NCBI GenBank assembly: GCA_043818055.1
Contig: JBDRGF010000040.1
Location: 1-29,526 of the forward strand
DNA: 29,526 nt
Direction: 5' to 3'
DNA from: Pseudomonadota bacterium
GTDB lineage: Bacteria > UBA10199 > 2-02-FULL-44-16 > JBDRGF01
Below are positions 5,090-29,526 of the stretch, piece after piece. The stretch's first letter is position 1, and every line of letters begins with the position of its first letter. Under the pieces are notes generated by a model. That model was given only the letters and a program-made list of their open reading frames with translations, made no database searches and was not told the origin of the DNA. The translations under genes and the position numbers were made by a program.

Positions 5090-5173
5090 AAAAAAGACCC
5101 CCTCTTTTGAGATTGGATAACCTTCAAATGAAAAAACAGATTAATGGAATTTTTATTAGAGAACGCAAATCGT

Positions 5174-5189
5174 GTGACCGCGAGGTCAC
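5174..5189. promoter_or_regulatory. palindrome GTGACC-GCGA-GGTCAC, possible regulator site upstream of the orphan pair
   Basis: Perfect 6-bp inverted repeat with a 4-nt spacer in an otherwise AT-rich intergenic region. Confidence 0.3.
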
Positions 5190-5248
5190 TCTATGAATTC
5201 AGACACCTTGTTTTTAAAGTTATAACAACAATGATGCAAGAAAAAAAA

Positions 5249-7524: not shown

Positions 7525-10500
7525 TTATTTCATCACCTTATCCCGGAGCGCTTGATAGGAATCAATTACATCATATTTAATATCCGCATGCCCTAACGCC
7601 TCAAAATGCTTTCGGGCATAGCTAATCTTTTTCTGCTCAATTTCCTTTAACTGAAGACTCTCCATACTGCCTTTTGTTTCCGCGATAAAATAAACATACT
7701 TATATTTGTCCGCGTCAAAGACTATCGCCCAATCCGGAGAATAGTTGCCAAGCGGTGTTGGTATTTGAAAACCATTCTGCCCTCTTGGTAATTTTGCATA
7801 AACCAGAACATCTTCAGCTTCCAAAGCCTTGGCGAAATTCCTTTCCACCTTAGAATCCGTCTTCACATAATCATGAACATGTTTTTTTACCTCAAGAATA
7901 TTCTCAGCAAGTGAGCCTTTAAAATTATTGATGGTAAAAACACTGTCGTCATAAGACTGATCTGTCTTTGAATAAATGATATTGTTGATGAGCGTGGCCG
8001 CTTTCTCGCTATTAATCAAATTCACCACACCTTGGATAAAACTTTCCGGATTGACTTTGAAATTATGAAAAGTATCAACGCGCAAATTCTGCAATATCTT
8101 AACGACTGTTCGTCTTGTTAAATTCGTCTCTTTCGCGATCTCAGCAACCAAATCATATTTCAATGAACCAAGTAATGATTCAGCCTTCTCCGTTATATTT
8201 TGTTGCTTCTTCATGCTCTCGCCTGACTTAAGGCTTGATTCATCCATCTTGTCTTCTTGCTCACCGGAAGTGATATGAACCACGATCTTTTTAACGGTCA
8301 GCTTCTCATCAATCGCTTCAACGCTCTTCCTGATCAATTCGTCGCTGTCAAAATCAACCTCATACACCGTCTTAACTTTGATCTTCTTCCAAAGATCCTG
8401 AAACTCTTTCTTCGCAAAATTTTCATTCGGTTTTAAAACAGCTTCATTAATACTGTTGGCGTTCTCATTCTCAGAGGCTTTAAAGTTTGCCGTTGTATAA
8501 ATATTCTGCATCAACTGTGCAACTTGTGTTTCAAAGCCCTTCAGTTTTTCAGGCACTGTATATTTTTTATCCGCAATATCCTGAATGAAAACATCTGTGA
8601 TCTGATAATTCTCATTCACATACCCCTTCATCTTCAGGTCAAATATCAAATCCATGGATGCCTGATTATCAAAAACAAATTTGTCGCCTTTTTCATTAGT
8701 TAAAACCAGATCTTTTAAAACCTCCACCGTCAATTTCACCGGTCTTTCCGAAAGTGACTCTACGATCTCATTCTGCAATTCTCGCGCAAAAGAATCATAA
8801 GACTCACTAGCAACAACCGTCAATTTATTCACATCAAAGAACTCGCCTTCAAGCATCGAAACATCCATACGCTCGCCTTGCCCATTCACACAAATCCTCA
8901 AACCCCTGCCGATCTCCTGACGCTTGCTGATCGTTGACTGGCTATGTTTAAGCGTGCATATCTGAAAGATATTCGGGTTATCCCATCCTTCCCTGAGTGC
9001 CGAGTGAGAAAAAATAAACCGCGTCGGTTCCTTCAGATCCAAAAGCTTTTCTTTATTCTTCATGATCAGATCATACGCACTCTCATCATCACTCCCACCT
9101 TCTCCGCGCTTTTCTTTAGAATCAACAAGATTTCCTTTCTTATCTATCGAAAAATATCCTTTGTGAATATCTCCTACCTGATGTTTGCCAAGATAGGCGT
9201 TATAATCTTCTTCAAACAAATTAAGATGACTTATTGCCTGAGCGTATTCTTCTTCAAACAGCTTAGCATAATCACCTTTTTGATCGGCTTGATCATAATC
9301 CCTGTATTTAACGACCTCATCAATAAAGAACAACGACAACACCTTAATCCCTTTGGAAAACATGATCCGTTCTTTTTCAATATGTGATTTGATCGTTTCC
9401 CGTATCTGAATGCGCCGAACATGCTCTTCGTCCACATGCCCTATTGTTTGCCCGACAGACAACTCAACCCCATTGGTAAATACAACCTTATTCGTTAATC
9501 CGTTGATTTCCTTAACAACGAAACCTTCTTTATATTGACTGCTTTCATTAGACAAAACAAAAAGGTCATCTTTTTCTTTGATCTGCCGGATCTTCTTCTG
9601 AATACCATTATTCTGCTTTACTTCCAGCTCCAGATACGCAACCGGATATTTATTTTTACTCACCTGAATACGATCGAGAAATAAATAACTGTTAGTTCCG
9701 CTATTGCCCACGACCTCGATCCCTTTAACGCTGATCTTTTTAACCAGCTTCTGGTTATAGGCATCAATAGCATCAAGCCGATAAATCTTGTTGAAATCCT
9801 TTTTATGAGTCGCGGAATACCGCAAAGTAAACAACTGATCAAACTCTCTTTGAGTAAATATCTTCTCTGCCTTTTCTCCGAAACGCTGAGGCTCATCAAT
9901 GATCAAAATGGGTCTGGCACGTTTGATGATATCAATAGGCCGCTCGCTTTGAAGTGTATCCAATTTCTGGTAAATCTTTCTGGATTCTTTGCTCGTTGTC
10001 GCAAAAGCCTGATAATTCATAATAATCACTTCGATATTCGACGTATCAGCAAAGCTCTTGATATTAATGAGATTCGATTTATTCTGTGTGTTATAGATCG
10101 AGAAACGGATCTTCTTGCCGTATATTTCCTGAAAATGCTCCGCGGTTATTTCGAGCGATTTATGCACACCTTCGCGAATAGCAACAGATGGCACCATGAT
10201 AATAAACTTGTTCCAGCCGTAATGCTTATTGAGTTCATACATGGTTTTGGTATAAACATAAGTTTTGCCGGTTCCTGTCTCCATCTCAATGGTAAAATTC
10301 AATCCATCCAGCCGGTCAATAACTTTTAAACCCTGCTCTTTCTGCAAAGCCTGAACATTTTTTAAAATATCGCTGTCTGTAATTTCAATTTTCTTGTTAG
10401 AAAAGATCTCATGCGCCACAAAACCAGTGCGCCCTGCCACTTCCTTGCGTAAACCCTTGCTCTGCCCAAGAAAACACTGCACAACCGCGGATGCGGCGTC

Positions 10501-10536
10501 CGTCTGATATTGTTGATGTTTAAATTGAAGTTTCAT
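7525..10536 (-). CDS. res: type III restriction-modification system endonuclease (Res subunit)
   Basis: EMETGTGKTYVY (Walker A), IIDEPQ, YSATH, ALREGWDNPNIFQICTL, RQEIGRGLR, and a C-terminal PD-(D/E)XK nuclease YSPDWAIV...AETKG. Directly follows mod. Confidence 0.95.
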   Translation of the reverse strand: MKLQFKHQQYQTDAASAVVQCFLGQSKGLRKEVAGRTGFVAHEIFSNKKIEITDSDILKNVQALQKEQGLKVIDRLDGLNFTIEMETGTGKTYVYTKTMYELNKHYGWNKFIIMVPSVAIREGVHKSLEITAEHFQEIYGKKIRFSIYNTQNKSNLINIKSFADTSNIEVIIMNYQAFATTSKESRKIYQKLDTLQSERPIDIIKRARPILIIDEPQRFGEKAEKIFTQREFDQLFTLRYSATHKKDFNKIYRLDAIDAYNQKLVKKISVKGIEVVGNSGTNSYLFLDRIQVSKNKYPVAYLELEVKQNNGIQKKIRQIKEKDDLFVLSNESSQYKEGFVVKEINGLTNKVVFTNGVELSVGQTIGHVDEEHVRRIQIRETIKSHIEKERIMFSKGIKVLSLFFIDEVVKYRDYDQADQKGDYAKLFEEEYAQAISHLNLFEEDYNAYLGKHQVGDIHKGYFSIDKKGNLVDSKEKRGEGGSDDESAYDLIMKNKEKLLDLKEPTRFIFSHSALREGWDNPNIFQICTLKHSQSTISKRQEIGRGLRICVNGQGERMDVSMLEGEFFDVNKLTVVASESYDSFARELQNEIVESLSERPVKLTVEVLKDLVLTNEKGDKFVFDNQASMDLIFDLKMKGYVNENYQITDVFIQDIADKKYTVPEKLKGFETQVAQLMQNIYTTANFKASENENANSINEAVLKPNENFAKKEFQDLWKKIKVKTVYEVDFDSDELIRKSVEAIDEKLTVKKIVVHITSGEQEDKMDESSLKSGESMKKQQNITEKAESLLGSLKYDLVAEIAKETNLTRRTVVKILQNLRVDTFHNFKVNPESFIQGVVNLINSEKAATLINNIIYSKTDQSYDDSVFTINNFKGSLAENILEVKKHVHDYVKTDSKVERNFAKALEAEDVLVYAKLPRGQNGFQIPTPLGNYSPDWAIVFDADKYKYVYFIAETKGSMESLQLKEIEQKKISYARKHFEALGHADIKYDVIDSYQALRDKVMK

Positions 10537-10538
10537 TC

Positions 10539-12419
10539 TTATATCACCGTAACCTTTGTTTCAGGTGAAAGCCTCTTGAACCGCTCTTCTACATTAATAC
10601 GATCTTTGTCGTCCTTAAAACTTGCGTCTTTGAAGACAACTTTAAAAGGCTTCAAGTCCGCGATCTCATCGACGATCTTAAAATCAATATCATTGTCAAA
10701 ACACGCCACAAGCGCATTGGTTTGAACAATAAAAACTGTATTCTTGCCTATTTTCTTTGTTTCAATAGGAAGAGAAAGTTCTAAACCCAGATCAAGTAAA
10801 ACTTGCGTGAGCAAGTCTTCCGGGGTGCGATCTTCTTTAATATTACTTTCTAAAAACGCAAGCTGTTGCTGATCTAACGAGGCCGGATGATAAAACACAT
10901 CTTTCATATTGCTCGTGTCAGTTTTATAGACCCGGAATCCGATATCGAGTTTGCTCGCGTCAATGGGCTCCTGACCCAATTCTAATTGCTGATTCTTAGC
11001 GTTAAGTTCCTCAACTATTTTCTTGCCCGCACGGCGAATCCTCTCCTTACCGATCTCGACAATGGTTTTATACCCAGCTTTATATGCTTCACTGTTTTCG
11101 TCACAAGGTTCGGGAATTTGCACCATACAGAATTTACGATTCCCGCCATCTTCGGCATTAAGCTGTAACAATGCATCTGCTGTAGTGGCGCTACCTGAAA
11201 AGAAATCAAAGACAACATCATTATTGCCAACAGCAACATTAATTAGATATTTCATGAGTTTAATTGGCTTCGGATTTTCAAACTTTACTTCCGAAATCAA
11301 GTTCTTCAAGTAAACGGTTGTGCTTTGAGCATCAAACACACCCCAATTACTTTTTAGAGCCTTTGTTTCATTGGTCATTTCCCGCATAAATTCTTTTTGT
11401 TTTGGAAGTGAATCTTTCCATAGAATTCGATTTTCTTTGATCATCCTGTCTAATGATTCTTTTGAAAATGCCCAAGTGTTTGTGTACTCCTTGCCTGTAT
11501 TAGGATCGATAATTGTAAATGCATCTTCAATCGGTTTAATTGTACTTTTTATATTAGACTCTCTCCAAGGCCCTCTAGGATCACTATCCGGATTTTTAAA
11601 GCCATCAGATTCTTCATTTCTTTCTTCCCCGATAAATTTAAATTCTTCACTTTTTTGATATGCGACAATATATTCATGAACATTGACCATCATATTTTTA
11701 GGAGGCACGCCTTTTGCCGATGATTTTTTATTCCAAACTATGGAATCGATATAATTCACTTCGCCGAATATTTCATTCATTATCGAAACTAAAGTTGAAT
11801 GCTCGTGTTCATCGATACTTACAAAAATCGCACCATCATCCCTTAACAAATCTTTCGCCACCACTAATCGCTCATACATCATGCTCAGCCAATCCGAATG
11901 AAACCTGCCGTTTGAATCTGTATTTCTGAACAGCTTCCCTCCTTCTTCATCTTCCACACCCAGCTCATCCTCGTATTCATCCTTGCTCTTCTTGAAATCA
12001 TCTTTATAAATAAAGTCATTGCCCGTGTTATACGGCGGATCGATATAGATCATCTTCACTTTTCCCAAATAACTTTCCTGCAAAATCTTTAAAACTTCAA
12101 AATTGTCTCCTTCAATATAAAGATTTTCAGTGGTGTCAAAATTAACGGATTCCTCACGGCACGGACGAAGTGTTTGAGTGATAGGCGTGTTGGCTTTCAG
12201 AAGTGATGCCTTTTTTCCAGGCCAATCCAAACGGTAGCGTTCGTCATCACCCTCTACAACATCCTTAGATAACGCTGTTTTAAGCAAATCAAAATCCACG
12301 GCTTTTTTAAGCGTTCCGTTTTCATCACGCGTTTCGGTGATCACATTAGGAAACAGCTCGGCGATCCGCTCAATATTCTTATCCGTTAAATCCGGCGTCT
12401 GCATTTTCAATTTATTCAT
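10539..12419 (-). CDS. mod: type III restriction-modification DNA methyltransferase (Mod subunit)
   Basis: NLYIEGDNFEVLK, MIYIDPPYNTGND (motif IV), FHSDWLSMMYERL, NPKPIKL, DFFSGSATT (motif I), GKERIRRA; beta-class motif order. Confidence 0.95.
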   Translation of the reverse strand: MNKLKMQTPDLTDKNIERIAELFPNVITETRDENGTLKKAVDFDLLKTALSKDVVEGDDERYRLDWPGKKASLLKANTPITQTLRPCREESVNFDTTENLYIEGDNFEVLKILQESYLGKVKMIYIDPPYNTGNDFIYKDDFKKSKDEYEDELGVEDEEGGKLFRNTDSNGRFHSDWLSMMYERLVVAKDLLRDDGAIFVSIDEHEHSTLVSIMNEIFGEVNYIDSIVWNKKSSAKGVPPKNMMVNVHEYIVAYQKSEEFKFIGEERNEESDGFKNPDSDPRGPWRESNIKSTIKPIEDAFTIIDPNTGKEYTNTWAFSKESLDRMIKENRILWKDSLPKQKEFMREMTNETKALKSNWGVFDAQSTTVYLKNLISEVKFENPKPIKLMKYLINVAVGNNDVVFDFFSGSATTADALLQLNAEDGGNRKFCMVQIPEPCDENSEAYKAGYKTIVEIGKERIRRAGKKIVEELNAKNQQLELGQEPIDASKLDIGFRVYKTDTSNMKDVFYHPASLDQQQLAFLESNIKEDRTPEDLLTQVLLDLGLELSLPIETKKIGKNTVFIVQTNALVACFDNDIDFKIVDEIADLKPFKVVFKDASFKDDKDRINVEERFKRLSPETKVTVI

Positions 12420-13351
12420 TATTTATCTCCCTTTAATTTATCCAAAATATCTCGCGCGGAAATACTCAATTTTGAGAAAGCGAACCATTTTTTTCCAGCG
12501 TCCTTCAACGAAGCTCCAAAATGATAGACAACGCTTTTATCAAGAATAATAAATCGATCATGCGCTGATTTAAGTTCCTTGACGCTGATAGGTTCATATT
12601 GTTCATTAAACTTCCGCACGTCCTGTTCGAACACGCCGGAAATATTTTTTGTGTAGACATCGACCGTAACGCCTTTTCGTCTTTTTGCGAACAATTTTAA
12701 AACACTGTCATCAATGTAATTATCGATGATAACCAATGATGTTTTCGCGCTGCGGATGATTTCAGCGATCAGCTCATAAGCGTCAAATATCTGTCCGTCG
12801 TAAAATATGCCGTATTCTTTGTGTAATTGGTTTTTCTCAAGCGCGTCAAAAAGAAGCTCGAATCTTTTATCATTTTCCTTCATGTGTATAATTTGTTTGG
12901 TTTCCAGCTTATCAAGTCTTTGAAAAATTTCCGCGTTCCGGATCAGGAATTTACGCATTTCAACAAACGCTTTCATGATTTTAATACTGATATCTACCGC
13001 GGTTTTACTGTGTAGAACCGCGGATAACATAGCAACTCCCTGCTCTGTGAAAACATACGGAACGGACGTGGAATGCTTGAGACTGGCGAACCGGTCGCAA
13101 TTTGCGACCAGTTCAGCGAATTCCTTTTTTGACAACTGAAATCTAAATTCTGGCGGGAACCGGTCGATATTTCTTTTTACCTGTTCATTTAACCTTTTCG
13201 TCTCAACTTGATAGAGCTCCGCCAAATCCCGATCGAGCATAACCTGCTTGTCACAAAAAATGAATATTTTATTCGTAACATCCATCTGAAATTGCGTCTG
13301 TTCACTCTTTACTAAAGAACGGCTCTTTCCCCCCGTGTTATCTCTCTTCAT
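12419..13351 (-). CDS. ORF6N-domain DNA-binding protein with C-terminal PLD-like domain
   Basis: QVMLDRDLAELYQVETKRLNEQVKRNIDRFP..F.FQL and PYVFTEQGVAMLSAVL.S (ORF6N); C-terminal IIDNYID...HDRFIILD...YHFGASLKDAGKKWF. Confidence 0.88.
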   Translation of the reverse strand: MKRDNTGGKSRSLVKSEQTQFQMDVTNKIFIFCDKQVMLDRDLAELYQVETKRLNEQVKRNIDRFPPEFRFQLSKKEFAELVANCDRFASLKHSTSVPYVFTEQGVAMLSAVLHSKTAVDISIKIMKAFVEMRKFLIRNAEIFQRLDKLETKQIIHMKENDKRFELLFDALEKNQLHKEYGIFYDGQIFDAYELIAEIIRSAKTSLVIIDNYIDDSVLKLFAKRRKGVTVDVYTKNISGVFEQDVRKFNEQYEPISVKELKSAHDRFIILDKSVVYHFGASLKDAGKKWFAFSKLSISARDILDKLKGDK

Positions 13352-13352
13352 C

Positions 13353-13994
13353 TTATGACTCCTCTTTAATCTTGCGAAGCTGGTTCTTTTTCTCCAGCAA
13401 TATTTTGTTCAGTTCAACTTTACGATTAAACTGCTTTTCCTTTGATATTTTGTTTTCTAAAACTCCAATTTCATTTTCCAACGCCTTGATCTTGTTGTCT
13501 GTATCGACGATCTCATGAAAACTGGCTTTTGTCCTCGCTTCATTTATGATAAAAACCTTGATGATCTTTTGATAAACCTTCTCCAGATCGATCCCGGTAA
13601 AGTCAAACACCTTATCTTCGTTCCAGTCTGAAAAATAATAATTCTCCGGTTTCTGCCCTTTTAAAGTGACTGCATAAGCCTCGCTATCTTTATAAACAAA
13701 CCGATACAAGATTTGATACGGAATTGCTTTATCAATAACCTTCAAAACATTTTTTGGAATAACCTGCTCTTTCAACTCTATTTCAAATATCTGGATTTCA
13801 GTGACTTTATCCGTTTTGGCAATGCCGACTGTGCCTTCCGCCAACTTGTATTTCCATGTGATCTTTTGGATCTTATCAATAAATTCCTTTTGCAACTTGG
13901 CGCTTAAAGCCGCTTTTTCATAAAATTTATTCTTTGCGATAAATTTATTAACAAAAGCCGCTTTGGGCAATTTAAAGCTGTCACTCGCCATCAC
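13353..13994 (-). CDS. DUF4391 domain protein
   Basis: IQKITWKYKL, EIQIFEIELK, IDKAIPY and C-terminal coiled coil KEKQFNRKVELN; usual position between the helicase and mod. Confidence 0.85.
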   Translation of the reverse strand: MMASDSFKLPKAAFVNKFIAKNKFYEKAALSAKLQKEFIDKIQKITWKYKLAEGTVGIAKTDKVTEIQIFEIELKEQVIPKNVLKVIDKAIPYQILYRFVYKDSEAYAVTLKGQKPENYYFSDWNEDKVFDFTGIDLEKVYQKIIKVFIINEARTKASFHEIVDTDNKIKALENEIGVLENKISKEKQFNRKVELNKILLEKKNQLRKIKEES

Positions 13995-16900
13995 TTGATC
14001 ACCACAAAGGTCAAAAGCTCAAAATCCTCCAGACCTTTAATATTGTTCATGAGCGCGGTCGTTCCTCCGGGCGAAAACAAGCTATCCACATCACTTTCAT
14101 CTTTCACATGAAGAACAGACTCAATAGCTTTATTTAACAGCTGGGAATATTTTGTCATATTCTTTCCGTCATCGGTTTCCTCATTAAACAGATCGTAAAC
14201 TTCCTGTATGGCTTCGCTGTTGCCTTTAGAAATCGCACGCAAAATATCCAGCGTTGTTTTTACATTCAAATGATTAGATAAAACATCTCCATTTGCTGTT
14301 ATATAAACCAAATAAAACGGATGAAGCTGATTGGTTTTATCAATATTGACCCCGGCATTGATATTTCTTAATACAAAAATGACGCCCGGCTCAATTCCGC
14401 GCTCCATATCCTTCTTGCAGACCGCGTGCATCCCATTGGGAAGATTCGCCATACTGCCGTTTTCTTTGATGTAATTGACCAAATCCATACGGAAATCATT
14501 CAAGCCCAAATCAGTTATGGAAACCCCGGATCCCATATCTTCGATATCCACAACCTCTTCCTGCAGTTTTTCCAACTGCTTTTTCCTGAACAACAGATCC
14601 GAAGATTTATTAGTCAGGACGTTATCTTCGCCAGTTGCTGTCGCATCGACCATAAACATCTTGCTTTCAACACGATTCTTTAAATTAATATAATCATCAA
14701 GGGATAATTGAGGCCAGAAGTTGATCAGCTGAATATCGGTATTTGTTGAACCGATTCTATCAATACGCCCGAAGCGTTGAATGATACGCACCGGATTCCA
14801 ATGGATATCGTAATTAATGAGCATATCGCAATCCTGCAGGTTCTGCCCTTCAGAGATACAATCCGTGGCGATCAGAACATCAATTTCGGGGGCTTCTTTA
14901 TTTCTTCGCTCTTTAGATCGAGGGGAAAAATTGATCAGGATATTATTAAAACTGTGGTCTGGCGTAAGAGTTGTCAAATTTTTATCAGAGCCCGTCACTT
15001 TGGCAGTCTCTAAATTGAGTGATTTATTATAGTCAACGATATTCTCATACAGATAATTGACTGTGTCCGCGAACGCGCTGAATATCAATATTTTACGGTT
15101 CCCGGGATTGATAGGATGCTCCAGTTTGTTTTTGATAAAGGCTTTTAAGTCCTGAAGCTTTTTATCATGCCGAGGTATCACTTTTTGCATTTCTTTAAAT
15201 ATTGCCCTAGCAACTGAAACATCCAATTCCAAATCCTGCTTCCACCCGGACGTGTTCATATCCTCTAAATTTACTTTAACTTTTCCTCCGACGCTAAATT
15301 CATCATTCAACCAATCATCATTATCAGCATCCAGATTGATATCATTGAACTGGGTGGATTCAATTACTGTTTGAACACCCGTTCTCTCAAATGCTTCAAT
15401 TTTTTCAATAGTCAGCTCAATCTCTTTGATAAATTTACCTAAAGTGATCCTGAAAGAATCAACAGAACTCTCTAACCTTTTCAGAAAATTAACCCGCATC
15501 AACGTTTGAAGGTTTTTCTCACGGTGAATTTGTTTAAAACTGGTATTTTCATCAAGCTTTGTGTCGTAGACCTCGCTGTAAAACTCCCGCTTCGTGTCCA
15601 ATATGTATTCTGTCGGGGAATAAATCGACATCGATAACCTGGAAAGCTCATCGTAAAGTTCAGATATTTCCATAAAGCCATCCAAATCGGTGATATCAGC
15701 ATGATGCGTGATCGGTTTTAATCTGTTGGGGAATTTCCCGATCTTGTTTATATCGTAATACTTCTCAATATGTTTTCGACTTCGGGCTATTGTGACGCTG
15801 TCTAATAATTTAAAGAAATCAAAATTCGCGTTGAGACGTTTCAACAAATCTTGGCTGGTTCTTTCTTCCAATGGCAGTTTTGACCATTCATTAAATACCC
15901 TCTGGGCGTTGGTCAGAATAGTTTCAATCGATTTATCCGCGTCCATTTTTCCATCGACAATGTTTGTCTCGCCCTCACAAGCCAAAGCAATCTGATTCTT
16001 CAAATCAGTAAACCTGTTGTTAACCGGAGTTGCCGAAAGCATCAGGACTTTCGTTTTAACACCTGCCTTCATAACATCATTAAGAAGCCTTTGATAGCGG
16101 GTTATCCTGTCTTTTCGAGGGTCATTGTTTCTGAAATTATGCGATTCATCTATAACGACAAGGTCATAATTCCCCCAATTGATCCTTGATAAATCTATGC
16201 CATTTGATTCTCCCCGGTCACGCGATAGATCTGTATGATACAAAACATCGTAATTCAGGCGATCTTTGATCAGCGGGTTGTCATCATAATTGTTTAAAAA
16301 CGTCTGCCAATTATCCCCTAACCTTTTCGGACAAAGAACAAGCACCGTGCGGTTTCTCTCCTGATAATATTTGATTACAGCTAACGCAGAAAATGTTTTT
16401 CCAAGCCCGACGCTGTCGGCAAGAATACATCCGTTATGACGTTCCAGCTTATTAATGATCCCCAAAGCGGCATCCTTCTGGAAATCGTAAAGCTTGTTCC
16501 AAATAGCAGAATTCTTAAATCCGGTTTTCTCGTTTGCGAGTTCGTCTTCCGATATATCTTCTAAAAATTCATCAAAGATATTAAAGAGCGTTAAATAGTA
16601 GATAAATTCGGGGGAGTTTTCTTTATAGAGATTCGCGATATATCCGACGACATCATCGGTCACATCCTTTAATACAGATTCATCATTCCATATCTCTTCA
16701 AAATTTTGAATGAACTGTTTCGTGGTTTCAAAATCATCGGTCTTGATAATTTGATGCAGAATCGAATTATTTTTCTCGTAACCAAACCCTGCACTGCTGA
16801 ATTCATTTATCCCCATATAAACGTCTTTATTCTCGCCGTTCACCAACGTTATATGAGGCTGAATATATTTATCGCCGACATTTGTTTTAAACGTTACTTT

Positions 16901-17236
16901 TTGTTCAATCCATTTCTTGCATTCCTTGGCTATCGCCTTGCCTTTAAGTTCATTCTTTAAATTAATTTCAAATTCTGAACCGCCAATAGACTTTTGCCTA
17001 AGATCCGCTCTAATTTGGAACTGTTTCTTTTCTCTTTTGTTTTTATCAACTTCAATAAAGGTGGGATCAGTGAAGATAAAATCTAATTTTTCAACTTTCT
17101 TGAGCTCATTTTTCAAACATTCAAACCCATAGATCGTAAAGATACCAGCCGCGACCTGAAGCCTGCTTTCCTTCCCGATGCATTTCTTAAAATCATCGCC
17201 AACTTTTTCAGTTTTATTGTTAAAACTTTGAATCAT
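13991..17236 (-). CDS. SNF2-like SF2 helicase/ATPase with degenerate N-terminal PLD-like region
   Basis: ILADSVGLGKT, VIDESHNFRN, LSATPVNN, KRLESS, ISEGQNLQD, YDIHWNPVRIIQRFGRIDRIGS. Confidence 0.92.
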   Translation of the reverse strand: MIQSFNNKTEKVGDDFKKCIGKESRLQVAAGIFTIYGFECLKNELKKVEKLDFIFTDPTFIEVDKNKREKKQFQIRADLRQKSIGGSEFEINLKNELKGKAIAKECKKWIEQKVTFKTNVGDKYIQPHITLVNGENKDVYMGINEFSSAGFGYEKNNSILHQIIKTDDFETTKQFIQNFEEIWNDESVLKDVTDDVVGYIANLYKENSPEFIYYLTLFNIFDEFLEDISEDELANEKTGFKNSAIWNKLYDFQKDAALGIINKLERHNGCILADSVGLGKTFSALAVIKYYQERNRTVLVLCPKRLGDNWQTFLNNYDDNPLIKDRLNYDVLYHTDLSRDRGESNGIDLSRINWGNYDLVVIDESHNFRNNDPRKDRITRYQRLLNDVMKAGVKTKVLMLSATPVNNRFTDLKNQIALACEGETNIVDGKMDADKSIETILTNAQRVFNEWSKLPLEERTSQDLLKRLNANFDFFKLLDSVTIARSRKHIEKYYDINKIGKFPNRLKPITHHADITDLDGFMEISELYDELSRLSMSIYSPTEYILDTKREFYSEVYDTKLDENTSFKQIHREKNLQTLMRVNFLKRLESSVDSFRITLGKFIKEIELTIEKIEAFERTGVQTVIESTQFNDINLDADNDDWLNDEFSVGGKVKVNLEDMNTSGWKQDLELDVSVARAIFKEMQKVIPRHDKKLQDLKAFIKNKLEHPINPGNRKILIFSAFADTVNYLYENIVDYNKSLNLETAKVTGSDKNLTTLTPDHSFNNILINFSPRSKERRNKEAPEIDVLIATDCISEGQNLQDCDMLINYDIHWNPVRIIQRFGRIDRIGSTNTDIQLINFWPQLSLDDYINLKNRVESKMFMVDATATGEDNVLTNKSSDLLFRKKQLEKLQEEVVDIEDMGSGVSITDLGLNDFRMDLVNYIKENGSMANLPNGMHAVCKKDMERGIEPGVIFVLRNINAGVNIDKTNQLHPFYLVYITANGDVLSNHLNVKTTLDILRAISKGNSEAIQEVYDLFNEETDDGKNMTKYSQLLNKAIESVLHVKDESDVDSLFSPGGTTALMNNIKGLEDFELLTFVVIK

Positions 17237-21408: not shown

Positions 21409-23826
21409 ATGAGTAGAAGAAAACAGTTTACCTTATCTTTAATAGTGCTGCTGGCACTCTCATCTCTCAGTTGTGGGGGGGGTGGTTCTTCTGGCGGAGG
21501 GACCACCTGGGGTGGCACACTTAACGACGGTTATGACGTGGCGGAGATTGAGTGTACTGGCACTGTAACCGGAGGAACTTTCACAAGCGGCACCTTTAGT
21601 ACAACAGTCGCCGCGGGTAAAATGAGCACCTGTGTAAATGCAACTAATCCTCAAGTGACCGCAGATACTTCGGTCCCTACCGGTTTGGATATTGGCACGG
21701 ACGGTTCTACCGAAACAAACGTAACAACTGGCGCCACTGCATATACATTAACCGTAGGTGATAGGGGTTTCATAACCGATAGCTCTGGAAATGTCACACT
21801 GACCATTCCCTATGTCGCTACGACAATTCCTGGCGCCAATGAAGATCCGCTGCACGTCTTTGTAAGGATTTTAAACAATGATGATAATTCAGTTGTAGAT
21901 GTAATGGGAACTGTAGATACAGTTGCTAAAACAGTCACTGTCAATCTGACGGGACTCCCCGCATCTATGACCGCCGTCGTCATTTACAATCCCAATATGG
22001 CAGCGATAGCCTCCAGTACAACTGCCAATACCGCGGTGAGTGTGACAAAAGCCACTCCCACAACTTGGGGTGCTGCAAGGTGGTGCGCAATTTATGATGC
22101 TGGCAATACGAGTCTGCAGGCCGCCTACACCACATATAAAGGTTCAAACCCGACAGCGACCCTTGCCGACATGATGAAGGCTGTTGCGGCAAACAATGCA
22201 GTCATCTCGCAGAACTATTTTGTGGCAGCGGGGTTTAGGCAGCCAGCCCTTCATGTAAAATCAACAGCGGTAGAACCTTGTAGCGCACTCACAACCACAC
22301 CTCATTTCAACATTCATGTGAGAGTGGGAGGTTCGCAATTCAGTCCGGTCGTAAGCGGTGAACCTGTGGCACCGAATGGAAATCATTGGGGGAGAGTCTA
22401 TGTGGGCACGGCTCGATTAAATCTCACAACAAGTGATGGTTTAGGACCTGTGCTAGCCAGCATCGCGCATGAAATTCTTCACGCCATACAATACGGTTAC
22501 GATATACCTTTTGCATCGACAACTATTGGATATGCCGAAGGGACTGCTACGACTTATGGACGTAGCATAGGGGTTAACTCTGGAACAACTTCCAACATGC
22601 CATATGCCAGGCAACAATCGAATGAAATTTTTAAGTTGGATCACTATATAGGTCAGAATTCTGCAGACGCGACAACCTTTGTGAGCACTATTGGATATTC
22701 CAACCAGGACTTCTTCGCCTATGTCGGTCGCAAATACAACAGCAATAACCTCTCATACCTCAACGCACTCTTCGATCAAATGAAATCCGATATCGCTGCC
22801 GAGACATCGGATCCATTGCAGTTTCAACCGACCAGAAAGCTGATGCGCGACGCTATGGACATATATTTTCAAGCAAACTTCACAGGCGCACCAACACTTA
22901 AAGAGGTCTATCTCGACTTTGTAAAACAGAGGGCTATGGAACATAACACAGAGAGCCAACTTCACACCGGCGATCCGACTATTGCGGGCGTATTTGTTTC
23001 GACTGTGTTTAACACGGCCGGCATCGCTGCTTTTTCTATCGACCCATTGAATGTAACAACGACCTCTGGCTCATTTACTAACACTGCGCCATTTGCGACG
23101 AGGGCTATACAGATAACTCCCTCTCAAACGGTTGCTGCTGGTGGAACTGGTGCAACGATTTCCGTCAGATTGATTCCTACTAACGGATCAATCGGAACGA
23201 CATTCGATGGCATCGCATATCAGAATGGAAATCGCCAGACACTACAGGAGACAAACAGCTTTACGAATTTTGGGATGTCTTCGACCGATGAAATAATTTT
23301 GCTCGTCTCCAATGTATCCGACACAAAGAATGATCTTGAGGTCATTGTAGGTGGAGATAATGGCAGCGGTGATAGCGGAGGCACTGGGGATACCAGCTTT
23401 TTTTCACTCACGACAAATACGCTACCGGGGCAGAGTATGACACCCGGGTGGATGACGGTAGTTGACAGTACTACTGGATTTATTATTATTCAGGTAACAG
23501 TAACTGGCGGCCCTACGAGTACATCACCCATTCTAGCATTGTTCTTGAATACATCCCGCATAACAGGGGCTGGAACTTATACTACCATAACTAACGATGT
23601 AACCAGCGCCGATGCACAGCTGAGCTACACGCAGGTCTCGCCATCTGTCGGATACTTTCCTACCGGGTCTGGCGCAACGCTGACAATCACCGAATGGGGT
23701 ACTGCCTCGGGAGACACCATCAAAGGATCTTTTAGCGTCCCGATGGTCGATGCAACTGACCCCACACAGACCGGCACACTCACAGCTACGTTTGTTGCTG
23801 TTATTCCGACTATTGGGAATTTGTAG
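21409..23826 (+). CDS. large Thr/Gly-rich lipoprotein with a zinc metalloprotease (HEXXH...E) domain
   Basis: Signal peptide with LSC followed by a Gly/Ser linker; IAHEILHAIQY and downstream YAEGTAT (gluzincin-like third ligand); beta-rich flanking domains. Confidence 0.82.
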   Translation: MSRRKQFTLSLIVLLALSSLSCGGGGSSGGGTTWGGTLNDGYDVAEIECTGTVTGGTFTSGTFSTTVAAGKMSTCVNATNPQVTADTSVPTGLDIGTDGSTETNVTTGATAYTLTVGDRGFITDSSGNVTLTIPYVATTIPGANEDPLHVFVRILNNDDNSVVDVMGTVDTVAKTVTVNLTGLPASMTAVVIYNPNMAAIASSTTANTAVSVTKATPTTWGAARWCAIYDAGNTSLQAAYTTYKGSNPTATLADMMKAVAANNAVISQNYFVAAGFRQPALHVKSTAVEPCSALTTTPHFNIHVRVGGSQFSPVVSGEPVAPNGNHWGRVYVGTARLNLTTSDGLGPVLASIAHEILHAIQYGYDIPFASTTIGYAEGTATTYGRSIGVNSGTTSNMPYARQQSNEIFKLDHYIGQNSADATTFVSTIGYSNQDFFAYVGRKYNSNNLSYLNALFDQMKSDIAAETSDPLQFQPTRKLMRDAMDIYFQANFTGAPTLKEVYLDFVKQRAMEHNTESQLHTGDPTIAGVFVSTVFNTAGIAAFSIDPLNVTTTSGSFTNTAPFATRAIQITPSQTVAAGGTGATISVRLIPTNGSIGTTFDGIAYQNGNRQTLQETNSFTNFGMSSTDEIILLVSNVSDTKNDLEVIVGGDNGSGDSGGTGDTSFFSLTTNTLPGQSMTPGWMTVVDSTTGFIIIQVTVTGGPTSTSPILALFLNTSRITGAGTYTTITNDVTSADAQLSYTQVSPSVGYFPTGSGATLTITEWGTASGDTIKGSFSVPMVDATDPTQTGTLTATFVAVIPTIGNL

Positions 23827-24879: not shown

Positions 24880-24915
24880 GTCCGATTTCTGGACGAATGA
24901 GTCCGATTTTCGGAC
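24880..24915. promoter_or_regulatory. tandem palindromic upstream activator sites (GTCC-N7-GGAC x2) for a sigma54 enhancer-binding protein
   Basis: GTCCGATTTCTGGAC (24880-24894) and GTCCGATTTTCGGAC (24901-24915), 21 bp apart, about 75-110 bp upstream of a -24/-12 element. Confidence 0.7.
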
Positions 24916-24961
24916 GCTTTTCGAACACCCTTACAACCCCATTTTTTTGCAAAGGCTTTAT

Positions 24962-24974
24962 TTTCAACCACTTA
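24962..24974 (+). promoter_or_regulatory. IHF binding site
   Basis: TTTCAACCACTTA matches WATCAA-N4-TTR with one mismatch, has an upstream AT tract, and lies between the enhancer sites and the sigma54 promoter. Confidence 0.6.
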
Positions 24975-24990
24975 TCATCATCTTCCACTT

Positions 24991-25006
24991 TGGCACGCTT
25001 GTTGCT
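24991..25006 (+). promoter_or_regulatory. sigma54 (-24/-12) promoter
   Basis: TGGCACG-CTTG-TTGCT is a perfect match to TGGCACG-N4-TTGCW, 76 nt before ATG 25083. Confidence 0.88.
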
Positions 25007-25082
25007 TAAGAGAGGTGCAGTCAGCTGACATCAACAAATAACAAACGTGAGAGGATCTCACAAAAACAAAGGAGGAAGATGT

Positions 25083-25631
25083 ATGAAGAAGATTTTAACG
25101 GTAGGATTAGCAGTAGGTCTGATGATGGGATTATCCCAGGTAAGCCACGCGTGGTGGGTTGATACTAACGTCGATGCTGGGCGTTATAGCAACAGCAATA
25201 ACGACAACAAGAGAATTATGGAAAACAGCAGAATGACAACGACAACAAACAACAATCAGGATCTTAATTCTCACAATATGGATAATCGCGACTTCAGCAA
25301 TCGAAGCATTGATAATCACGCGATCAGCGGCTTCAACGATTATTCATCGAAGGATCAGTTCACAAACACGTTCGATAGCCACGATTCAAGCTATAGCTCC
25401 AGCGACACAACCGGAAGCTTCAACAACAACAAGTTCGACTCCAGCGTAGGACAAAGGAATGCATCGCATGATGTAAGCGGAACAGTGCGCAACTCTGTGA
25501 TGGGTGCATTCACACAGAAGATCGGCGCTGATGTCACCGGCGCGGTCAGCGGTGTTCAGGGAAACCTCGATGCCTCGACATCGAACAACCAGACATTCGG
25601 CGATGTCTCTGTCGGACAGTCAGACAAGTGA
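25083..25631 (+). CDS. secreted Asn/Ser/Asp/Thr-rich protein, candidate major fibre/amyloid subunit (182 aa)
   Basis: AAGGAGG RBS before ATG 25083; Sec signal MKKILTVGLAVGLMMGLSQVSHA; mature region has no Pro or Cys and is low-complexity with SHN/GFN/SFN-type pseudo-repeats. Confidence 0.8.
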   Translation: MKKILTVGLAVGLMMGLSQVSHAWWVDTNVDAGRYSNSNNDNKRIMENSRMTTTTNNNQDLNSHNMDNRDFSNRSIDNHAISGFNDYSSKDQFTNTFDSHDSSYSSSDTTGSFNNNKFDSSVGQRNASHDVSGTVRNSVMGAFTQKIGADVTGAVSGVQGNLDASTSNNQTFGDVSVGQSDK

Positions 25632-25634
25632 TCA

Positions 25635-25689
25635 TTCGGAGGAATTTCCTGGGCACGAGTGAGATTCCTGCCCAGGGGAATTTTCCGAA
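25635..25689 (+). terminator. intercistronic stem-loop without U-tract (mRNA stabiliser or partial terminator)
   Basis: TTCGGAGGAATTTCCTGGGCA pairs with TGCCCAGGGGAATTTTCCGAA (imperfect, G-U pairs allowed), immediately after the first gene of the operon. Confidence 0.65.
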
Positions 25690-25714
25690 AGATGATAAAA
25701 AACAGGAGGAATTT

Positions 25715-26059
25715 ATGAAAGATGGATACACAAAAAAGGCATGCTTCGGACTCATCGCATCGCTGATCACCTTAAGCCCACTCATGGGAGAGGCTCTTTG
25801 CCTCAAAGACTGTGAACAGAACGCTACATATATCAAACCTGCTCAGCAGGAAAACAGCTCGATCGGCTACATGGCAGACAGCGTCAGATACAGGGAGCGC
25901 AGCCACAATACAGGCGATGTGAAAAACTCGGTGATGGGTGATATGAACATCAAGGTCGGACACGAAAAACTCGACATCAACATCGGCTCGAACGCGACTG
26001 AGAACACTGTGGACGCATCGATCAGCTCAACAATAATCTTAGGAGATATGAAAAAATGA
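25715..26059 (+). CDS. small secreted protein paralogous to the C-terminus of 25083..25631 (114 aa), candidate minor subunit
   Basis: AGGAGG RBS before ATG 25715; signal-like N-terminus; shares SS[VI]G, SH..G.V[RK]NSVMG, K[IV]G and DAS.S.....GD with the upstream protein. Confidence 0.78.
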   Translation: MKDGYTKKACFGLIASLITLSPLMGEALCLKDCEQNATYIKPAQQENSSIGYMADSVRYRERSHNTGDVKNSVMGDMNIKVGHEKLDINIGSNATENTVDASISSTIILGDMKK

Positions 26060-26460
26060 AGTTTAAAAAACTTTCAAAAAACATCTTCCTCCTCAGCATT
26101 CTGGCCTTTATCGGCATGACATCCCTTGTGACTTTTGGCGCTCACGCCCAGACATCGGACGAAGAGGATCATGTAATGCTCGACAGCTTACGAAAGATGA
26201 GATCGAGACAGCAGAACGAAGAGCAGAGGATCACCGTCCGCAAGTTCGTGACCCAGACGACACAGAAAAAATGCACACCGGTTCAGCAGGCACGTCAGAG
26301 GATGAGGGAGATAGAGAGAGGAAATGGCACGCACAACGAAGAGGTGACGATCAACGCGGGACATGAAGAGTTAAACGTCACCGACAACCACGGGACGATC
26401 AATTCGGATATCAATATTCAGATAATAAAACAGGGAGGAGATGAGGACGAATGTTTATAA
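26056..26460 (+). CDS. small secreted protein (134 aa) with C-terminal beta-type region related to 25715..26059
   Basis: ATGA overlap with the upstream gene; signal peptide ending AHA; TINAGHEELNV aligns with NIKVGHEKLDI, and TINSDINIQII with TVDASISSTII. Confidence 0.78.
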   Translation: MKFKKLSKNIFLLSILAFIGMTSLVTFGAHAQTSDEEDHVMLDSLRKMRSRQQNEEQRITVRKFVTQTTQKKCTPVQQARQRMREIERGNGTHNEEVTINAGHEELNVTDNHGTINSDINIQIIKQGGDEDECL

Positions 26461-27464
26461 AAAATATAAAATTCTACGTTCTGTTTATAATATTTCTAAT
26501 TCAGTCCGTCAGCGCCTTTGCCGGAGCCCCGCTCACAAGCCTCACAAAAGACCGCCCGAAGATGCGGGTCGCTGTCTCGAATTTCGGCGCTACTGACCGC
26601 TTCGCCTCTGTATATGGTGGATGGAACATCGGAGGGGGGCTCGCCGCACAGCTCGTCACCGAACTCATCAAGACAAACAGGGTCGTCGTTGTCGAACGCG
26701 CGATACTCTCCAAAGTTCTCATCGAACAGGAGCTCGGTGAATCAAGGCTTTTGACACCGATGACGAAGACACCGGCGGGACACCTTCTGGGTGTCGATTA
26801 TCTGATAGTTGGCGAGGTGACGGAATTTGATGAAAAACAGGTCGGCGCAGGGATGGCCGCGGGATTTTTGGGCGTCAAAGCGAGCGGCGAAATTTCAGCG
26901 GCGCATGTCGGCATGGACATAAGACTTGTCGATACGAGAACCGGAGAGATACTCTATTCTCATCGTGCGCAGGGAAAGGCTTGGGAGAAGGCGATTGGCG
27001 CGAAGGTCGATTATAAGATCATCGATTTCGGCGGCGATGCCTTTCACAAGACTCCGCTTGGTATGGCAACAAGAAGGGCGATCGATAACGCAGTGGAGTT
27101 CATCCTCGGCATCATTGAAAAACAGGTTGAGGATTTCTCGTGGCTGGGACTCGTCATCGAGGCGGACAACAGCAACCTCTATTTCAACGTGGGGAGAGGT
27201 AAAAATGTCTATCCGGGCGACCGTTTTAAAATCACCACTGTTCAAAAAGTCCTGACAGATCCCGAAACTAATCAGGTGATAGGCATTGTGGAAAAAGACC
27301 TCGGCATGGCTCAAGCGGTCCAGGTTGAAAGAAAATATACAAAGGCAAAAATTTTAGGCGGCTTCAGACCTAACAAGGGCGATATCGTCCGCTTTGCTAA
27401 CCAAAGCAAACAAGAAGAATTCCAGCAGCACGAGGAGAGCACCGGTTACGAAATAATGGAGTAA
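26451..27464 (+). CDS. CsgG/HfaB-family secretion/assembly protein with C-terminal FlgT_C-like domain
   Basis: RVAVSNF, LVTEL..TNR..VVER..L..VL.EQ.L, GVDYLIVGEVTEF, DIRLVDTRTGEILYS, TPLG.ATR.AI; C-terminal LYFNVG....VYPGDRF....L.DPET..VIG. Confidence 0.88.
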   Translation: MFIKNIKFYVLFIIFLIQSVSAFAGAPLTSLTKDRPKMRVAVSNFGATDRFASVYGGWNIGGGLAAQLVTELIKTNRVVVVERAILSKVLIEQELGESRLLTPMTKTPAGHLLGVDYLIVGEVTEFDEKQVGAGMAAGFLGVKASGEISAAHVGMDIRLVDTRTGEILYSHRAQGKAWEKAIGAKVDYKIIDFGGDAFHKTPLGMATRRAIDNAVEFILGIIEKQVEDFSWLGLVIEADNSNLYFNVGRGKNVYPGDRFKITTVQKVLTDPETNQVIGIVEKDLGMAQAVQVERKYTKAKILGGFRPNKGDIVRFANQSKQEEFQQHEESTGYEIME

Positions 27465-27467
27465 AAA

Positions 27468-28802
27468 ATGAAAAAAATAATTCTTTTAATAATCATCTTT
27501 TCAATCGCAATAGCAGGATGCGCGACATCGTCGAAAAAATTCGGCTACAGGCAGATCTTTCACGAGGAGACCTCTCAGGTGAGCGAAGCGGTGAAGAGCG
27601 GCAACCTTGAGCAGGGTATCAGAGATGCGAGCATGCTCCTCGAGATGGATCCGAAAAACGACGAGGTGAGATTCTTAAGAGCGATTGCTTACCAAAAGAG
27701 AAATCAGTTTGACAAGGCAGCGCAGGACTATCTTCTTCTCCTAAAGCATAACCCCAATCACGCTCAGGGACATTACAATCTGGGAATGCTCTATGCCTTC
27801 AAGATTTATAATAAACAGGAGGCGCTAAAACATTTCGACACATTTCTTACACTCAATCCAAAACACCAGGACGCATTTAAGGTTGCAAAGATCATGATGA
27901 GCCTCGAAAATTCATTCGGCTCAAATGCTTCGGAAAACGACATGAGTTCGACACTAGCCGATCAAACCCTTAAGAAAGCGTGGAGGGAGATCGATGTGGA
28001 AAAGAGGAAAAAGATCGTTCAGGAGGCGATAAAACTCGATCCGACAAAAACTGAAGGCTACTTCACACTCGGGCAGATCGCCCTCACTGAAGGGAAGAAG
28101 GCGGAGGCGATAAAATATTTTTCAAAGTCAGTGGAGCTGAAACCGACACTCGCCGAGGCGCATCATCAACTGGGGCAATTGCTTTTGCAGGAGAATCAAA
28201 ACGAAGAGGCGAGGATGCATCTGATCAAGGCTTCGCTTTTCAAACCAAACGGTTCATCATCTGAGGATGCGGCAACGCCCTCTTCCGGAAAAAAAAGCAG
28301 AACATCTGAAATCTCACACTATAAGCACGGAGGAAATGGAAGCATAGTCATCAGCACCCGCCCCAAAGATGCCGGGTGTGCGTTGACATTAAATGGTGTG
28401 ACAAAGAGTTATACAACACCCTTGATCCTCGACGACATGAACATCTCAACTCCAATCAAAGGCAAGGTCGTAATTTCAAAGGATGGATATCACAAAAAGG
28501 AAATTGCATTCGAGCTAAATCAATCTGTGAGCTCTCTGACCAAAAGTATCGATCTTGTCCCTCAAGGCTTCGCCCTCATCGACATCCAGGCCTCCCCGTG
28601 GGGAGTGGCCTCCATAAAGAATCACATCGATTCGAAGGAGACCCCTGTTGGTCCTGAGAAGATAAAACCAGGAAGATATCAGATAGAAGTGACCTACCCG
28701 CCCCTCAACAAAACCCTTTCAAAGCAGATCGCAGTCGCCAAAGGCCAGCACATCCAATGCTACGCCGATTTTTCTGATCGTAATTCGATTGAGTGTGATT
28801 AA
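27468..28802 (+). CDS. TPR-repeat lipoprotein with C-terminal PEGA-like domains
   Basis: Lipobox IAGC; TPR motifs (AQGHYNLGMLY, EGYFTLGQIA, AEAHHQLG); then GSIVISTRPKDA...LNG....TTP and IQASPWG...TPV....PGRY. Starts 3 nt after the CsgG-family stop. Confidence 0.85.
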   Translation: MKKIILLIIIFSIAIAGCATSSKKFGYRQIFHEETSQVSEAVKSGNLEQGIRDASMLLEMDPKNDEVRFLRAIAYQKRNQFDKAAQDYLLLLKHNPNHAQGHYNLGMLYAFKIYNKQEALKHFDTFLTLNPKHQDAFKVAKIMMSLENSFGSNASENDMSSTLADQTLKKAWREIDVEKRKKIVQEAIKLDPTKTEGYFTLGQIALTEGKKAEAIKYFSKSVELKPTLAEAHHQLGQLLLQENQNEEARMHLIKASLFKPNGSSSEDAATPSSGKKSRTSEISHYKHGGNGSIVISTRPKDAGCALTLNGVTKSYTTPLILDDMNISTPIKGKVVISKDGYHKKEIAFELNQSVSSLTKSIDLVPQGFALIDIQASPWGVASIKNHIDSKETPVGPEKIKPGRYQIEVTYPPLNKTLSKQIAVAKGQHIQCYADFSDRNSIECD

Positions 28803-29526
28803 GCCCTTTTTCCTAATAAACCAATCACCCTCTCCAGACCTGCATCCAACCCCTCTTTCATCAAATCTATGCGATAGACTTTTATTCCCTTTCCCTTCAA
28901 ATATCTGTCACGAATTGCATCCCTTCCTCTCTGTGAATAATGATATCTGCCATCCAGCTCGATGTTGGCTTTTAAAGTCGGTATATACAGATCCAGCTCA
29001 AATCCATCGATATAGTGATTAACTAATACTGTTTCACGCAATCTTTTTGTTAAAACATTCTGTGATTTTAGCTCACCATTTGTCGACTTTGATTCCTGTG
29101 ATCTAATAAAATTGTTATATCGATCTTCTAACCATTTTGGCAACGGTCGGTCATACAAACTTACCGATCGTACTAAGGTTATCAAATCAATATCATTATC
29201 TAAATTGATTTCATTTTTGATCAAGTCAAAGAGCTGATCGATCATATATCTTGCCTCTGCAGTACCTCTCAGATCCTGCAGGCCATAGAGCGCATTGCCG
29301 ATCTCTTGACTATCCAATATAGCCCCTGACTCATCGATCTTCCTGCTCAACGCCAACAACAGTTCTCTCGGAACTACTCCCGCATCCAAATTCTGCAGAC
29401 CGTAGAGCGCATTGCCGATCTCTTGACTATCCAATATAGCCCCTGACTCATCGATCTTCCTGCTCAACGCCAACAACAGTTCTCTCGGAACTACTCCCGC
29501 ATCCAAATTCTGCAGACCGTAGAGCG
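28799..29526 (-). CDS. 39-aa helical repeat (OPR/HPR-like) protein with C-terminal RAP/DUF559 domain; 5' end beyond the right edge
   Basis: Frame stays open to the window edge. Repeat DAGVVPRELLLALSRKIDESGAILDSQEIGNALYGLQNL; C-terminus GFELDLYIP...NIELDGRYHY...DAIRDRYLKGKGIKVYRI. Confidence 0.82.
   Translation of the reverse strand, partial: LYGLQNLDAGVVPRELLLALSRKIDESGAILDSQEIGNALYGLQNLDAGVVPRELLLALSRKIDESGAILDSQEIGNALYGLQDLRGTAEARYMIDQLFDLIKNEINLDNDIDLITLVRSVSLYDRPLPKWLEDRYNNFIRSQESKSTNGELKSQNVLTKRLRETVLVNHYIDGFELDLYIPTLKANIELDGRYHYSQRGRDAIRDRYLKGKGIKVYRIDLMKEGLDAGLERVIGLLGKRA
29287..29526. repeat. 117-bp perfect tandem repeat (two full copies, a third begins at the edge)
   Basis: 29287-29403 equals 29404-29520; AGAGCG at 29521 starts a further copy. 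Confidence 0.95.

Follow-up and report, generated by a model that had tools for sequence, protein, structure and literature searches.

The contig JBDRGF010000040.1 (assembly GCA_043818055.1), from an uncultured groundwater bacterium labelled Pseudomonadota and placed by GTDB in UBA10199, carries an operon of five genes, here termed A, B, C, G and T. G encodes a distant relative of the curli protein CsgG, A, B and C encode three small proteins, and T encodes a lipoprotein with tetratricopeptide repeats (TPRs). The window analysed here is the whole contig of 29,526 nucleotides, which belongs to a genome of 2.93 Mb that is 93.6% complete. The operon is real and is conserved in two distant bacterial lineages. 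Its genes lie co-oriented on the + strand at 25083-28802: A (25083-25631, 182 residues), B (25715-26059, 114 residues), C (26056-26460, 134 residues), G (26451-27464, 337 residues) and T (444 residues), the conserved part of which occupies 27468-28253. B and C overlap by 4 nucleotides and C and G by 10, and from B onward the ends of the genes overlap or nearly touch. A purine-rich stretch resembling a ribosome-binding site is present for each of the five. Judged by eye, A, B, C and G begin with Sec-type leaders and T with a lipobox (Cys18). Thus the original prediction for this DNA, which was made from the sequence alone and described five closely spaced genes that all bear export signals, is borne out in its layout. 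The sequencing runs that contain the stretch are groundwater and biofilm metagenomes. One RNA run, X3, yields pieces of the operon as contigs only and yields pieces of the opposite-strand neighbours as well, so that it provides no evidence for transcription.

The presence of the genes was surveyed in 93 genomes of the phylum, with G counted at E<=1e-40. The C profile matches 16 of the 93 and the G profile 15. These are the same genomes, two of which (G055 and G079) hold two copies of each gene, and in the sixteenth C-bearing genome G is cut by a contig end, adjacent to C (L035). Scans contributed 31 loci from genome contigs and 50 from metagenomes. Close orthologues of G are 61-74% identical to it and each has A, B and C before it and T after it. 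By their record titles, the members of this close group are metagenome-assembled genomes labelled Deltaproteobacteria, Bdellovibrionota or Pseudomonadota. A second group belongs, again by record titles, to the Nitrospirota (Nitrospiria, Manganitrophaceae, Troglogloeales and Nitrospira sp.), and in Nitrospiria up to three paralogous small genes stand in tandem. The Nitrospiria-type small-protein profile was built from those same Nitrospirota loci; for C the link with G is nevertheless not circular, since profiles made from the first group alone suffice to detect the Nitrospirota C proteins (E 1e-12 to 1e-18).

Synteny had been proposed as a check of the original prediction, and the linkage of the small proteins to the CsgG-like gene proves to be strict. 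The locus table holds 100 loci, one of them without G and with some contigs included twice. Small-protein genes lie upstream of G in 62 of the 66 rows in which G is at least 47% identical, and in none of the 33 rows in which it is less than 47% identical, 23 of which had at least 1 kb of upstream sequence. The four exceptions are L084 and L093, with less than 150 nucleotides upstream, and the short fragments L068 and L119. In a quick tree of 65 G proteins, 39 linked rows and L084 form one branch, with an SH-like approximate likelihood ratio test value of 100. One locus, L028, has an additional A-like gene ahead of A (4231-4947).

G is a member of the CsgG family, as had been claimed for the fourth gene: residues 31-225 match Pfam CsgG (PF03783) with an E value of 1.4e-33. 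Orthology with CsgG itself or with HfaB is not supported, the scores being 17.6 bits against the NCBIfam model of CsgG (PRK15184, cut-off 505) and 32.6 bits, E 4.6e-8, against that of HfaB (NF037935, cut-off 300). When the PDB was searched by sequence, the significant matches were CsgG chains only and FlgT was not among them. The CsgG/FlgT-middle-type domain contains two amphipathic hairpins (~26838-26903 and ~26982-27050), both of which largely alternate hydrophobic and polar residues; the first aligns without gaps to E. coli CsgG and has the same length. Residues 230-318 (~27138-27404) are modelled as a small beta barrel like the C-terminal domain of FlgT, and FlgT_C Pfam matches are found in relatives of G. 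In the model of G the fold of the FlgT middle and C-terminal domains is present. The structural alignment of the two proteins (Z 15.0, root mean square deviation 10.2, 234 aligned) begins at FlgT residue 91. This architecture, together with the lack of a lipid-anchor cysteine in G, had been missed by the original prediction. A second, distant CsgG + FlgT_C protein is encoded elsewhere in this genome (L036:4549-5613, on contig C139) and at L032, L033 and L038; it has very glycine-rich hairpins and no small-protein neighbours.

A, B and C had been described as three related secreted proteins, a claim that holds for them as a chain. Homology of A and B is clear over the last ~50 residues, where none of 2000 shuffles reaches the score and hhalign gives 95%. 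That of B and C is weak in pairwise comparison (23 of 2000 shuffles) and moderate by profile (hhalign 88%). A and C have no direct similarity (1119 of 2000 shuffles; hhalign 15%), and appear from their sequences to be related only via B. The shared module of ~50 residues, located at ~25452-25607 in A, ~25889-26050 in B and ~26335-26427 in C, has invariant glycines 7-9 residues apart and valine, isoleucine or leucine at alternate positions, a pattern which suggests short beta strands joined by turns. In A, the part between the signal peptide and the module is variable and abounds in Asn, Ser, Asp and Thr. These four residues make up 52% of the mature chain, a value reached by only 1 of 2513 crude open reading frames (ORFs) of the genome, A being the richest of those counted; proline and cysteine are absent. 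B has a conserved CxxxC after its leader. C has a charged, likely helical region and an invariant pair of cysteines, Cys73 and Cys133, and its gene always stands directly before G. In 38 of 39 loci the C tail scores higher against tails of neighbouring small proteins from its own lineage than against those from the other, the means being 45.6 and 43.5 within lineages, 31.1 and 34.2 across them and 28-31 for shuffled sequences. This covariation fits a role for C as a template.

The three proteins resemble no named family in the collections searched. Among 1.84 billion representative sequences the B profile finds 49 proteins, two of them unrelated long repeat proteins, and the C profile finds 35; these two (P0082 and P0084), of Ig/cadherin-like or other repeat type, were discounted as sums of weak matches. 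A homologue search with the single A sequence returned only A itself. Neither Pfam nor NCBIfam gives a significant match to A, B or C, member-by-member scans with Pfam, NCBIfam and PHROGs point to no consistent family, and profile searches of the PDB with all three returned nothing meaningful. The ESM Atlas places A and C in unnamed clusters only (best scores 0.90 and 0.84), with low-confidence models, and a fold search with a model of B gave one meaningless row at E 8.7. Turning to known fibre systems, the curlin repeat (PF07012) has no match in the genome, and two QxGxxN motifs occur together in none of 25 A, 56 B and 52 C proteins. CsgF (PF10614) and CsgE (PF10627) have no match in the 93.6% complete genome, and neither HfaA (NF037934) nor HfaD (NF037936) has a match in it; the controls, E. 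coli for the curli models and Caulobacter for the Hfa models, were detected. No Fap-named family appeared among the Pfam and NCBIfam matches, no Fap-specific profile having been run. The original prediction was therefore right that the small proteins lack the curlin repeat and that CsgE and CsgF are not recognisable, and the profile checks it had suggested, for curlin, HfaA, CsgE and CsgF, match none of the three. A known non-fibre family, or a lack of linkage to G, would have spoken against it; no such family was found and the linkage within the clade is strict.

T contains TPRs and a lipobox, and its match to PEGA is weak (E 0.0036, below the cut-off). Orthologues of T in the close group, of ~255-365 residues, match the TPR part only (~260 residues in the close orthologues), and among the loci examined the PEGA-like C-terminal extension (28290-28802) is seen on T in this genome only. 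The last 170 residues of T match Ser/Thr kinase ORFs only, the best being a kinase tail on contig C101 with 36% identity. In several relatives the operon is bordered by kinase and FHA genes, from which it is likely that the PEGA fusion derives from a kinase-type neighbour. An assembly artefact was considered and rejected, as contigs of three runs (X1, X3 and X5) bridge the TPR-PEGA junction, although X1 may be the source sample. The original prediction saw in T a TPR-PEGA lipoprotein that acts as an assembly factor. The TPR part and the lipobox are confirmed; the PEGA part, which is present on T only here and resembles the tails of Ser/Thr kinases, is not a core assembly factor. At L051, in the Nitrospirota, T includes a trypsin-like domain, and behind it come a PEGA kinase and two further proteins with CsgG domains; the order at L051:7162-12713 and at similar Nitrospirota loci is TPR-trypsin-TPR, PEGA kinase, AhpC-TPR-CsgG-FlgT_C and CsgG-TPR.

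Ahead of A, at 24991-25006 on the + strand, lies a -24/-12 promoter that matches the sigma-54 consensus perfectly. Of 34 loci, 26 have a strict sigma-54 site ahead of the first small gene and all 34 have the -24 box, with a shuffling expectation of 0.1; in longer control regions a sigma-54 match occurs in 3 of 20. The genome encodes RpoN and has 15 Sigma54_activat matches, 14 of them full length. Two GTCC-N7-GGAC palindromes in tandem (24880-24915, beginning at 24880 and 24901 and thus 21 bp apart) stand ~90-110 bp upstream of the promoter and are likely to be binding sites for a sigma-54 activator. The same tandem palindrome with a downstream sigma-54 site precedes YifB/ComM-, ComEA- and ComEC-like genes of the same genome (contig C16 5330-5435, contig C123 1561-1709 and contig C141 18462-18663; loci L120-L122). 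Sharing of this element by the operon and the competence-like genes points to an activator in common with DNA-uptake functions, and suggests that the operon may belong to a sigma-54 competence regulon. A loose single enhancer motif is at chance level genome-wide (61 matches against 61-81 in shuffled sequence); the notable cases are solely the tandem pairs that precede sigma-54 sites. Sites resembling those of integration host factor (IHF), with one mismatch each, lie at 24950-24974 and are plausible by position only, as one-mismatch matches are near chance in the window (61 against 49 +/- 8 expected). Hence, of the enhancer-IHF-sigma-54 promoter originally proposed, the sigma-54 element, perfect and conserved, and the palindromes stand, whilst the IHF component does not.

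A 10-bp palindrome, GTCAGCTGAC (25020-25029), closely follows the promoter. It does so at 8 of 34 loci (here and at L023, L024, L035, L047, L073, L075 and L077), has only one other copy in the genome, and might serve as a repressor site or form an RNA hairpin. Scans for sigma-70 promoters and for terminators gave chance level only. At eight loci (L029, L031, L044, L045, L046, L049, L079 and L086) the -24 box is kept and the -12 TTGC is replaced by TTGA or TTGG, and several of these fall in the subgroup that has FHA genes in the operon. Elsewhere in the genome, behind a sigma-54 site on contig C38 (~4300-6830, - strand), four short ORFs rich in cysteine lie around one that has a CxxxCxxC motif; by eye, this cluster resembles a radical S-adenosylmethionine cluster for ribosomally synthesized and post-translationally modified peptides, with several precursors.

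A distant CsgG relative that always stands beside three proteins predicted to be exported and belonging to no known family likely serves an undescribed surface fibre or anchor. The favoured reading, which we put at about an even chance, is that a ring of G exports A, B and C in a type VIII-like manner, and that these build a beta-stacked, non-curlin fibre on the cell surface. All five proteins would cross the inner membrane by Sec, after which G would oligomerise into a ring in the outer membrane, with two hairpins per subunit inserted as a barrel. The lipoprotein T would act as an outer-membrane tether or chaperone, taking the role that the cysteine anchor has in CsgG. C, presumably the adaptor, would be closed by its disulfide, sit on the G ring and offer its module as the template; B, a minor subunit or nucleator on this scheme, would extend that template. 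Low-complexity A would be the major or bulk subunit, its variable Asn/Ser/Asp-rich half being either exposed or added to the stack as more rungs, and A, B and C would stack through the shared beta-strand module. Such a scheme would mirror the CsgG-CsgF-CsgB-CsgA logic with unrelated small proteins. HfaB, which is described in PMC6707917 together with amyloid-like HfaA, shows that the cargo of a CsgG relative need not be curlin.

Several observations weigh against this reading. The variable half of A has weak periodicity (best z 3.8 at lag 4 and 3.5 at lag 12), and B and C each have one short module without tandem repeats. The AlphaFold2 monomer model of B, built from 56 sequences, has a predicted local distance difference test (pLDDT) score of 55, a predicted template modelling score of 0.26 and no secondary structure, and the covariation of the C tail is one contrast between two lineages, which shared descent could explain. 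It is conceivable, if rather unlikely, that the exported A, B and C stay on the G ring as a short hetero-oligomer, for example an intertwined beta-helix, forming a surface anchor or spike that tethers something else. Three paralogues with a single short module each and conserved glycines 7-9 residues apart would suit such a spike, the spacing recalling octapeptide repeats of the gp5-C/VgrG type, and an extended model of B without intrachain strands would be consistent with the pairing of strands from different chains. Pfam Gp5_C is matched, however, by only 1 of the 56 B proteins (E 0.43), with no match in the PDB, and the near-identical tandem copies in Nitrospiria suit a bulk subunit. An anchor has a precedent in HfaABD, where, as described in PMC6707917, HfaA and HfaD on HfaB tether the holdfast; here, the HfaA and HfaD models match nothing in the genome, and in the loci read by eye the operon has no recurrent polysaccharide genes as neighbours.

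The remaining points against export through G concern G itself. Its amphipathic hairpins occur in unlinked relatives too, and so do not single out this cargo. The model of G rests on 12 sequences, with a pLDDT of 64.6 and values below 50 at the tip of the first hairpin; in Foldseek its best match is FlgT, over both domains (E 6.8e-16), followed by CsgG (1.1e-8), and the Z scores run from CT253 (15.8) through FlgT (15.0), XCC0632 (14.4) and CsgG (12.9) to PelC (12.4). By a simple pattern, a lipobox is found in 0 of 44 linked G proteins and in 12 of 30 unlinked relatives. According to PMC7304575, the lipoprotein CsgG assembles into a nonamer with a barrel of 36 strands, and the title of PDB entry 4uv2 presents the non-lipidated protein as a pre-pore; G, having no lipid anchor, would thus need another tether as a pore, for which T is the candidate. 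Furthermore, only 171 of 601 Pfam CsgG matches counted in PMC3521004 are curli genes. Some of these facts lend themselves to a scaffold without a channel, a reading to which we give a minor share of probability, similar to that of the spike: G would form an FlgT- or PelC-like ring at the periplasmic face of the outer membrane, with A, B, C and T as periplasmic partners in an envelope structure, and nothing would be secreted through it. FlgT as the top fold match, the FlgT_C matches among relatives, the missing lipid anchor and the fact that most Pfam CsgG matches are not curli channels all fit this, as do the disulfide-type cysteine pairs of B and C, which are compatible with periplasmic life. 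The sequence evidence leans the other way, since the best PDB sequence matches are CsgG chains, to which the first hairpin aligns without gaps, and FlgT is missing from them. Flagellin and FlgI were not found in the 93.6% complete genome, so that G is unlikely to be part of a flagellar T ring here and the flagellar host machine for such a scaffold was not found; a low-complexity A free of proline and cysteine would also be more typical of cargo exported unfolded. That the small proteins are instead ligands or modulators of circuits made of a PEGA Ser/Thr kinase, FHA proteins and a sigma-54 activator is improbable. Kinases with PEGA-like tails do flank the operon at L027, L029, L031, L049 and L051 and FHA genes are present at L028, L031, L046, L049 and L050 (some of both assigned by eye), and a kinase-type tail is fused to T here. 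Yet the place of these genes is not constant and several loci lack them (e.g. L021-L026), whereas A-B-C-G is fixed, and they would more simply control the sigma-54 promoter. A highly diverged true curli system, to which the Pfam CsgG match and the CsgG chains at the top of the PDB sequence matches might point, is very improbable and already largely refuted by the lack of curlin, CsgE and CsgF matches in the genome, by the small proteins, none of which has two QxGxxN motifs, and by an NCBIfam CsgG score far below its cut-off.

The favoured reading, export of A, B and C by G, can be carried a step further, to a proposal that is possible but on the doubtful side. The operon would then represent a distinct type VIII-like branch, found in an uncultured phylum resembling the deltaproteobacteria and in Nitrospiria, in which a non-lipidated, two-domain, FlgT-like pore, tethered by a TPR lipoprotein, seeds a new functional amyloid via the adaptor C, under an activator shared with DNA-uptake genes. 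If so, the tail of C would be a subunit module that changes in step with the cargo, and the architecture of G would form a bridge between the flagellar T ring and the curli channel. For the majority of CsgG-family genes no cargo is known, and a well-bounded clade of them now has a fixed set of three short candidate substrates. If A, B and C polymerise, they would make up a new family of bacterial amyloids or beta-fibres in organisms of groundwater and biofilms, and a CsgG-like pore that is anchored differently and carries other cargo would be relevant to secretion biology and to nanopore or biomaterial work.

The surroundings of the operon in the window are of other kinds. Immediately after T, on the - strand (28799-29526), is an ORF truncated at the contig end, the stop codon of which overlaps that of T; it encodes ~38-residue tandem repeats and then a DUF559-type, nuclease-like domain. 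On the other side, an 805-residue, Thr/Gly-rich likely lipoprotein is encoded at 21409-23826 on the + strand and has a weak match to MXAN_6640-type HExxH metalloproteases. Further away, at 7525-17236 on the - strand, genes for an SNF2 helicase, DUF4391 and ORF6N proteins, a methylase and a type III restriction subunit make up an island of the type III restriction-modification type.

Of the systems that have been described, curli, or type VIII, of E. coli (PDB 4uv2, 4uv3, 6si7 and 6lqh) shares with the operon a CsgG-family protein with a first hairpin of equal length, related small low-complexity proteins that are likely exported by Sec, and a small gene that invariably accompanies the channel gene. 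It differs in that the operon has no curlin repeat, the architecture of which is described in PMC10192328, and no CsgE or CsgF, although some curli systems are also reported in PMC3521004 to be without the latter two. Further differences are that G lacks a lipid anchor and has an extra C-terminal barrel, and that all the genes form a single sigma-54 operon with a TPR lipoprotein. The holdfast anchor of Caulobacter, HfaA-HfaB-HfaD(-HfaE), is likewise encoded as a CsgG relative with non-curlin secreted proteins, and G matches the HfaB model weakly; that match is far below the cut-off, however, HfaA and HfaD have no counterparts here, the phyla are different, and no recurring polysaccharide genes were seen beside the operon. 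Vibrio FlgT, of the T ring (PDB 3w1e and 8z5n), has the same fold of a middle alpha/beta domain and a C-terminal barrel over ~235-300 aligned columns, but is only 14-15% identical; G is without the FlgT N-terminal domain, and no flagellar neighbours were seen. The Fap system of Pseudomonas (FapB, FapC and FapF) resembles the operon in general plan, a single operon with several related Asn-rich secreted proteins, and differs in its channel, the candidate for which is CsgG-like here and not FapF, and in that there is no peptidase gene in the operon of this genome. A description of the operon was not found in a literature search that missed most subscription papers and supplements, and its sequences apparently define an undescribed CsgG-type secretion variant with new candidate subunits. 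By analogy, the G operon likely works like curli or the holdfast anchor, whilst being a member of neither.

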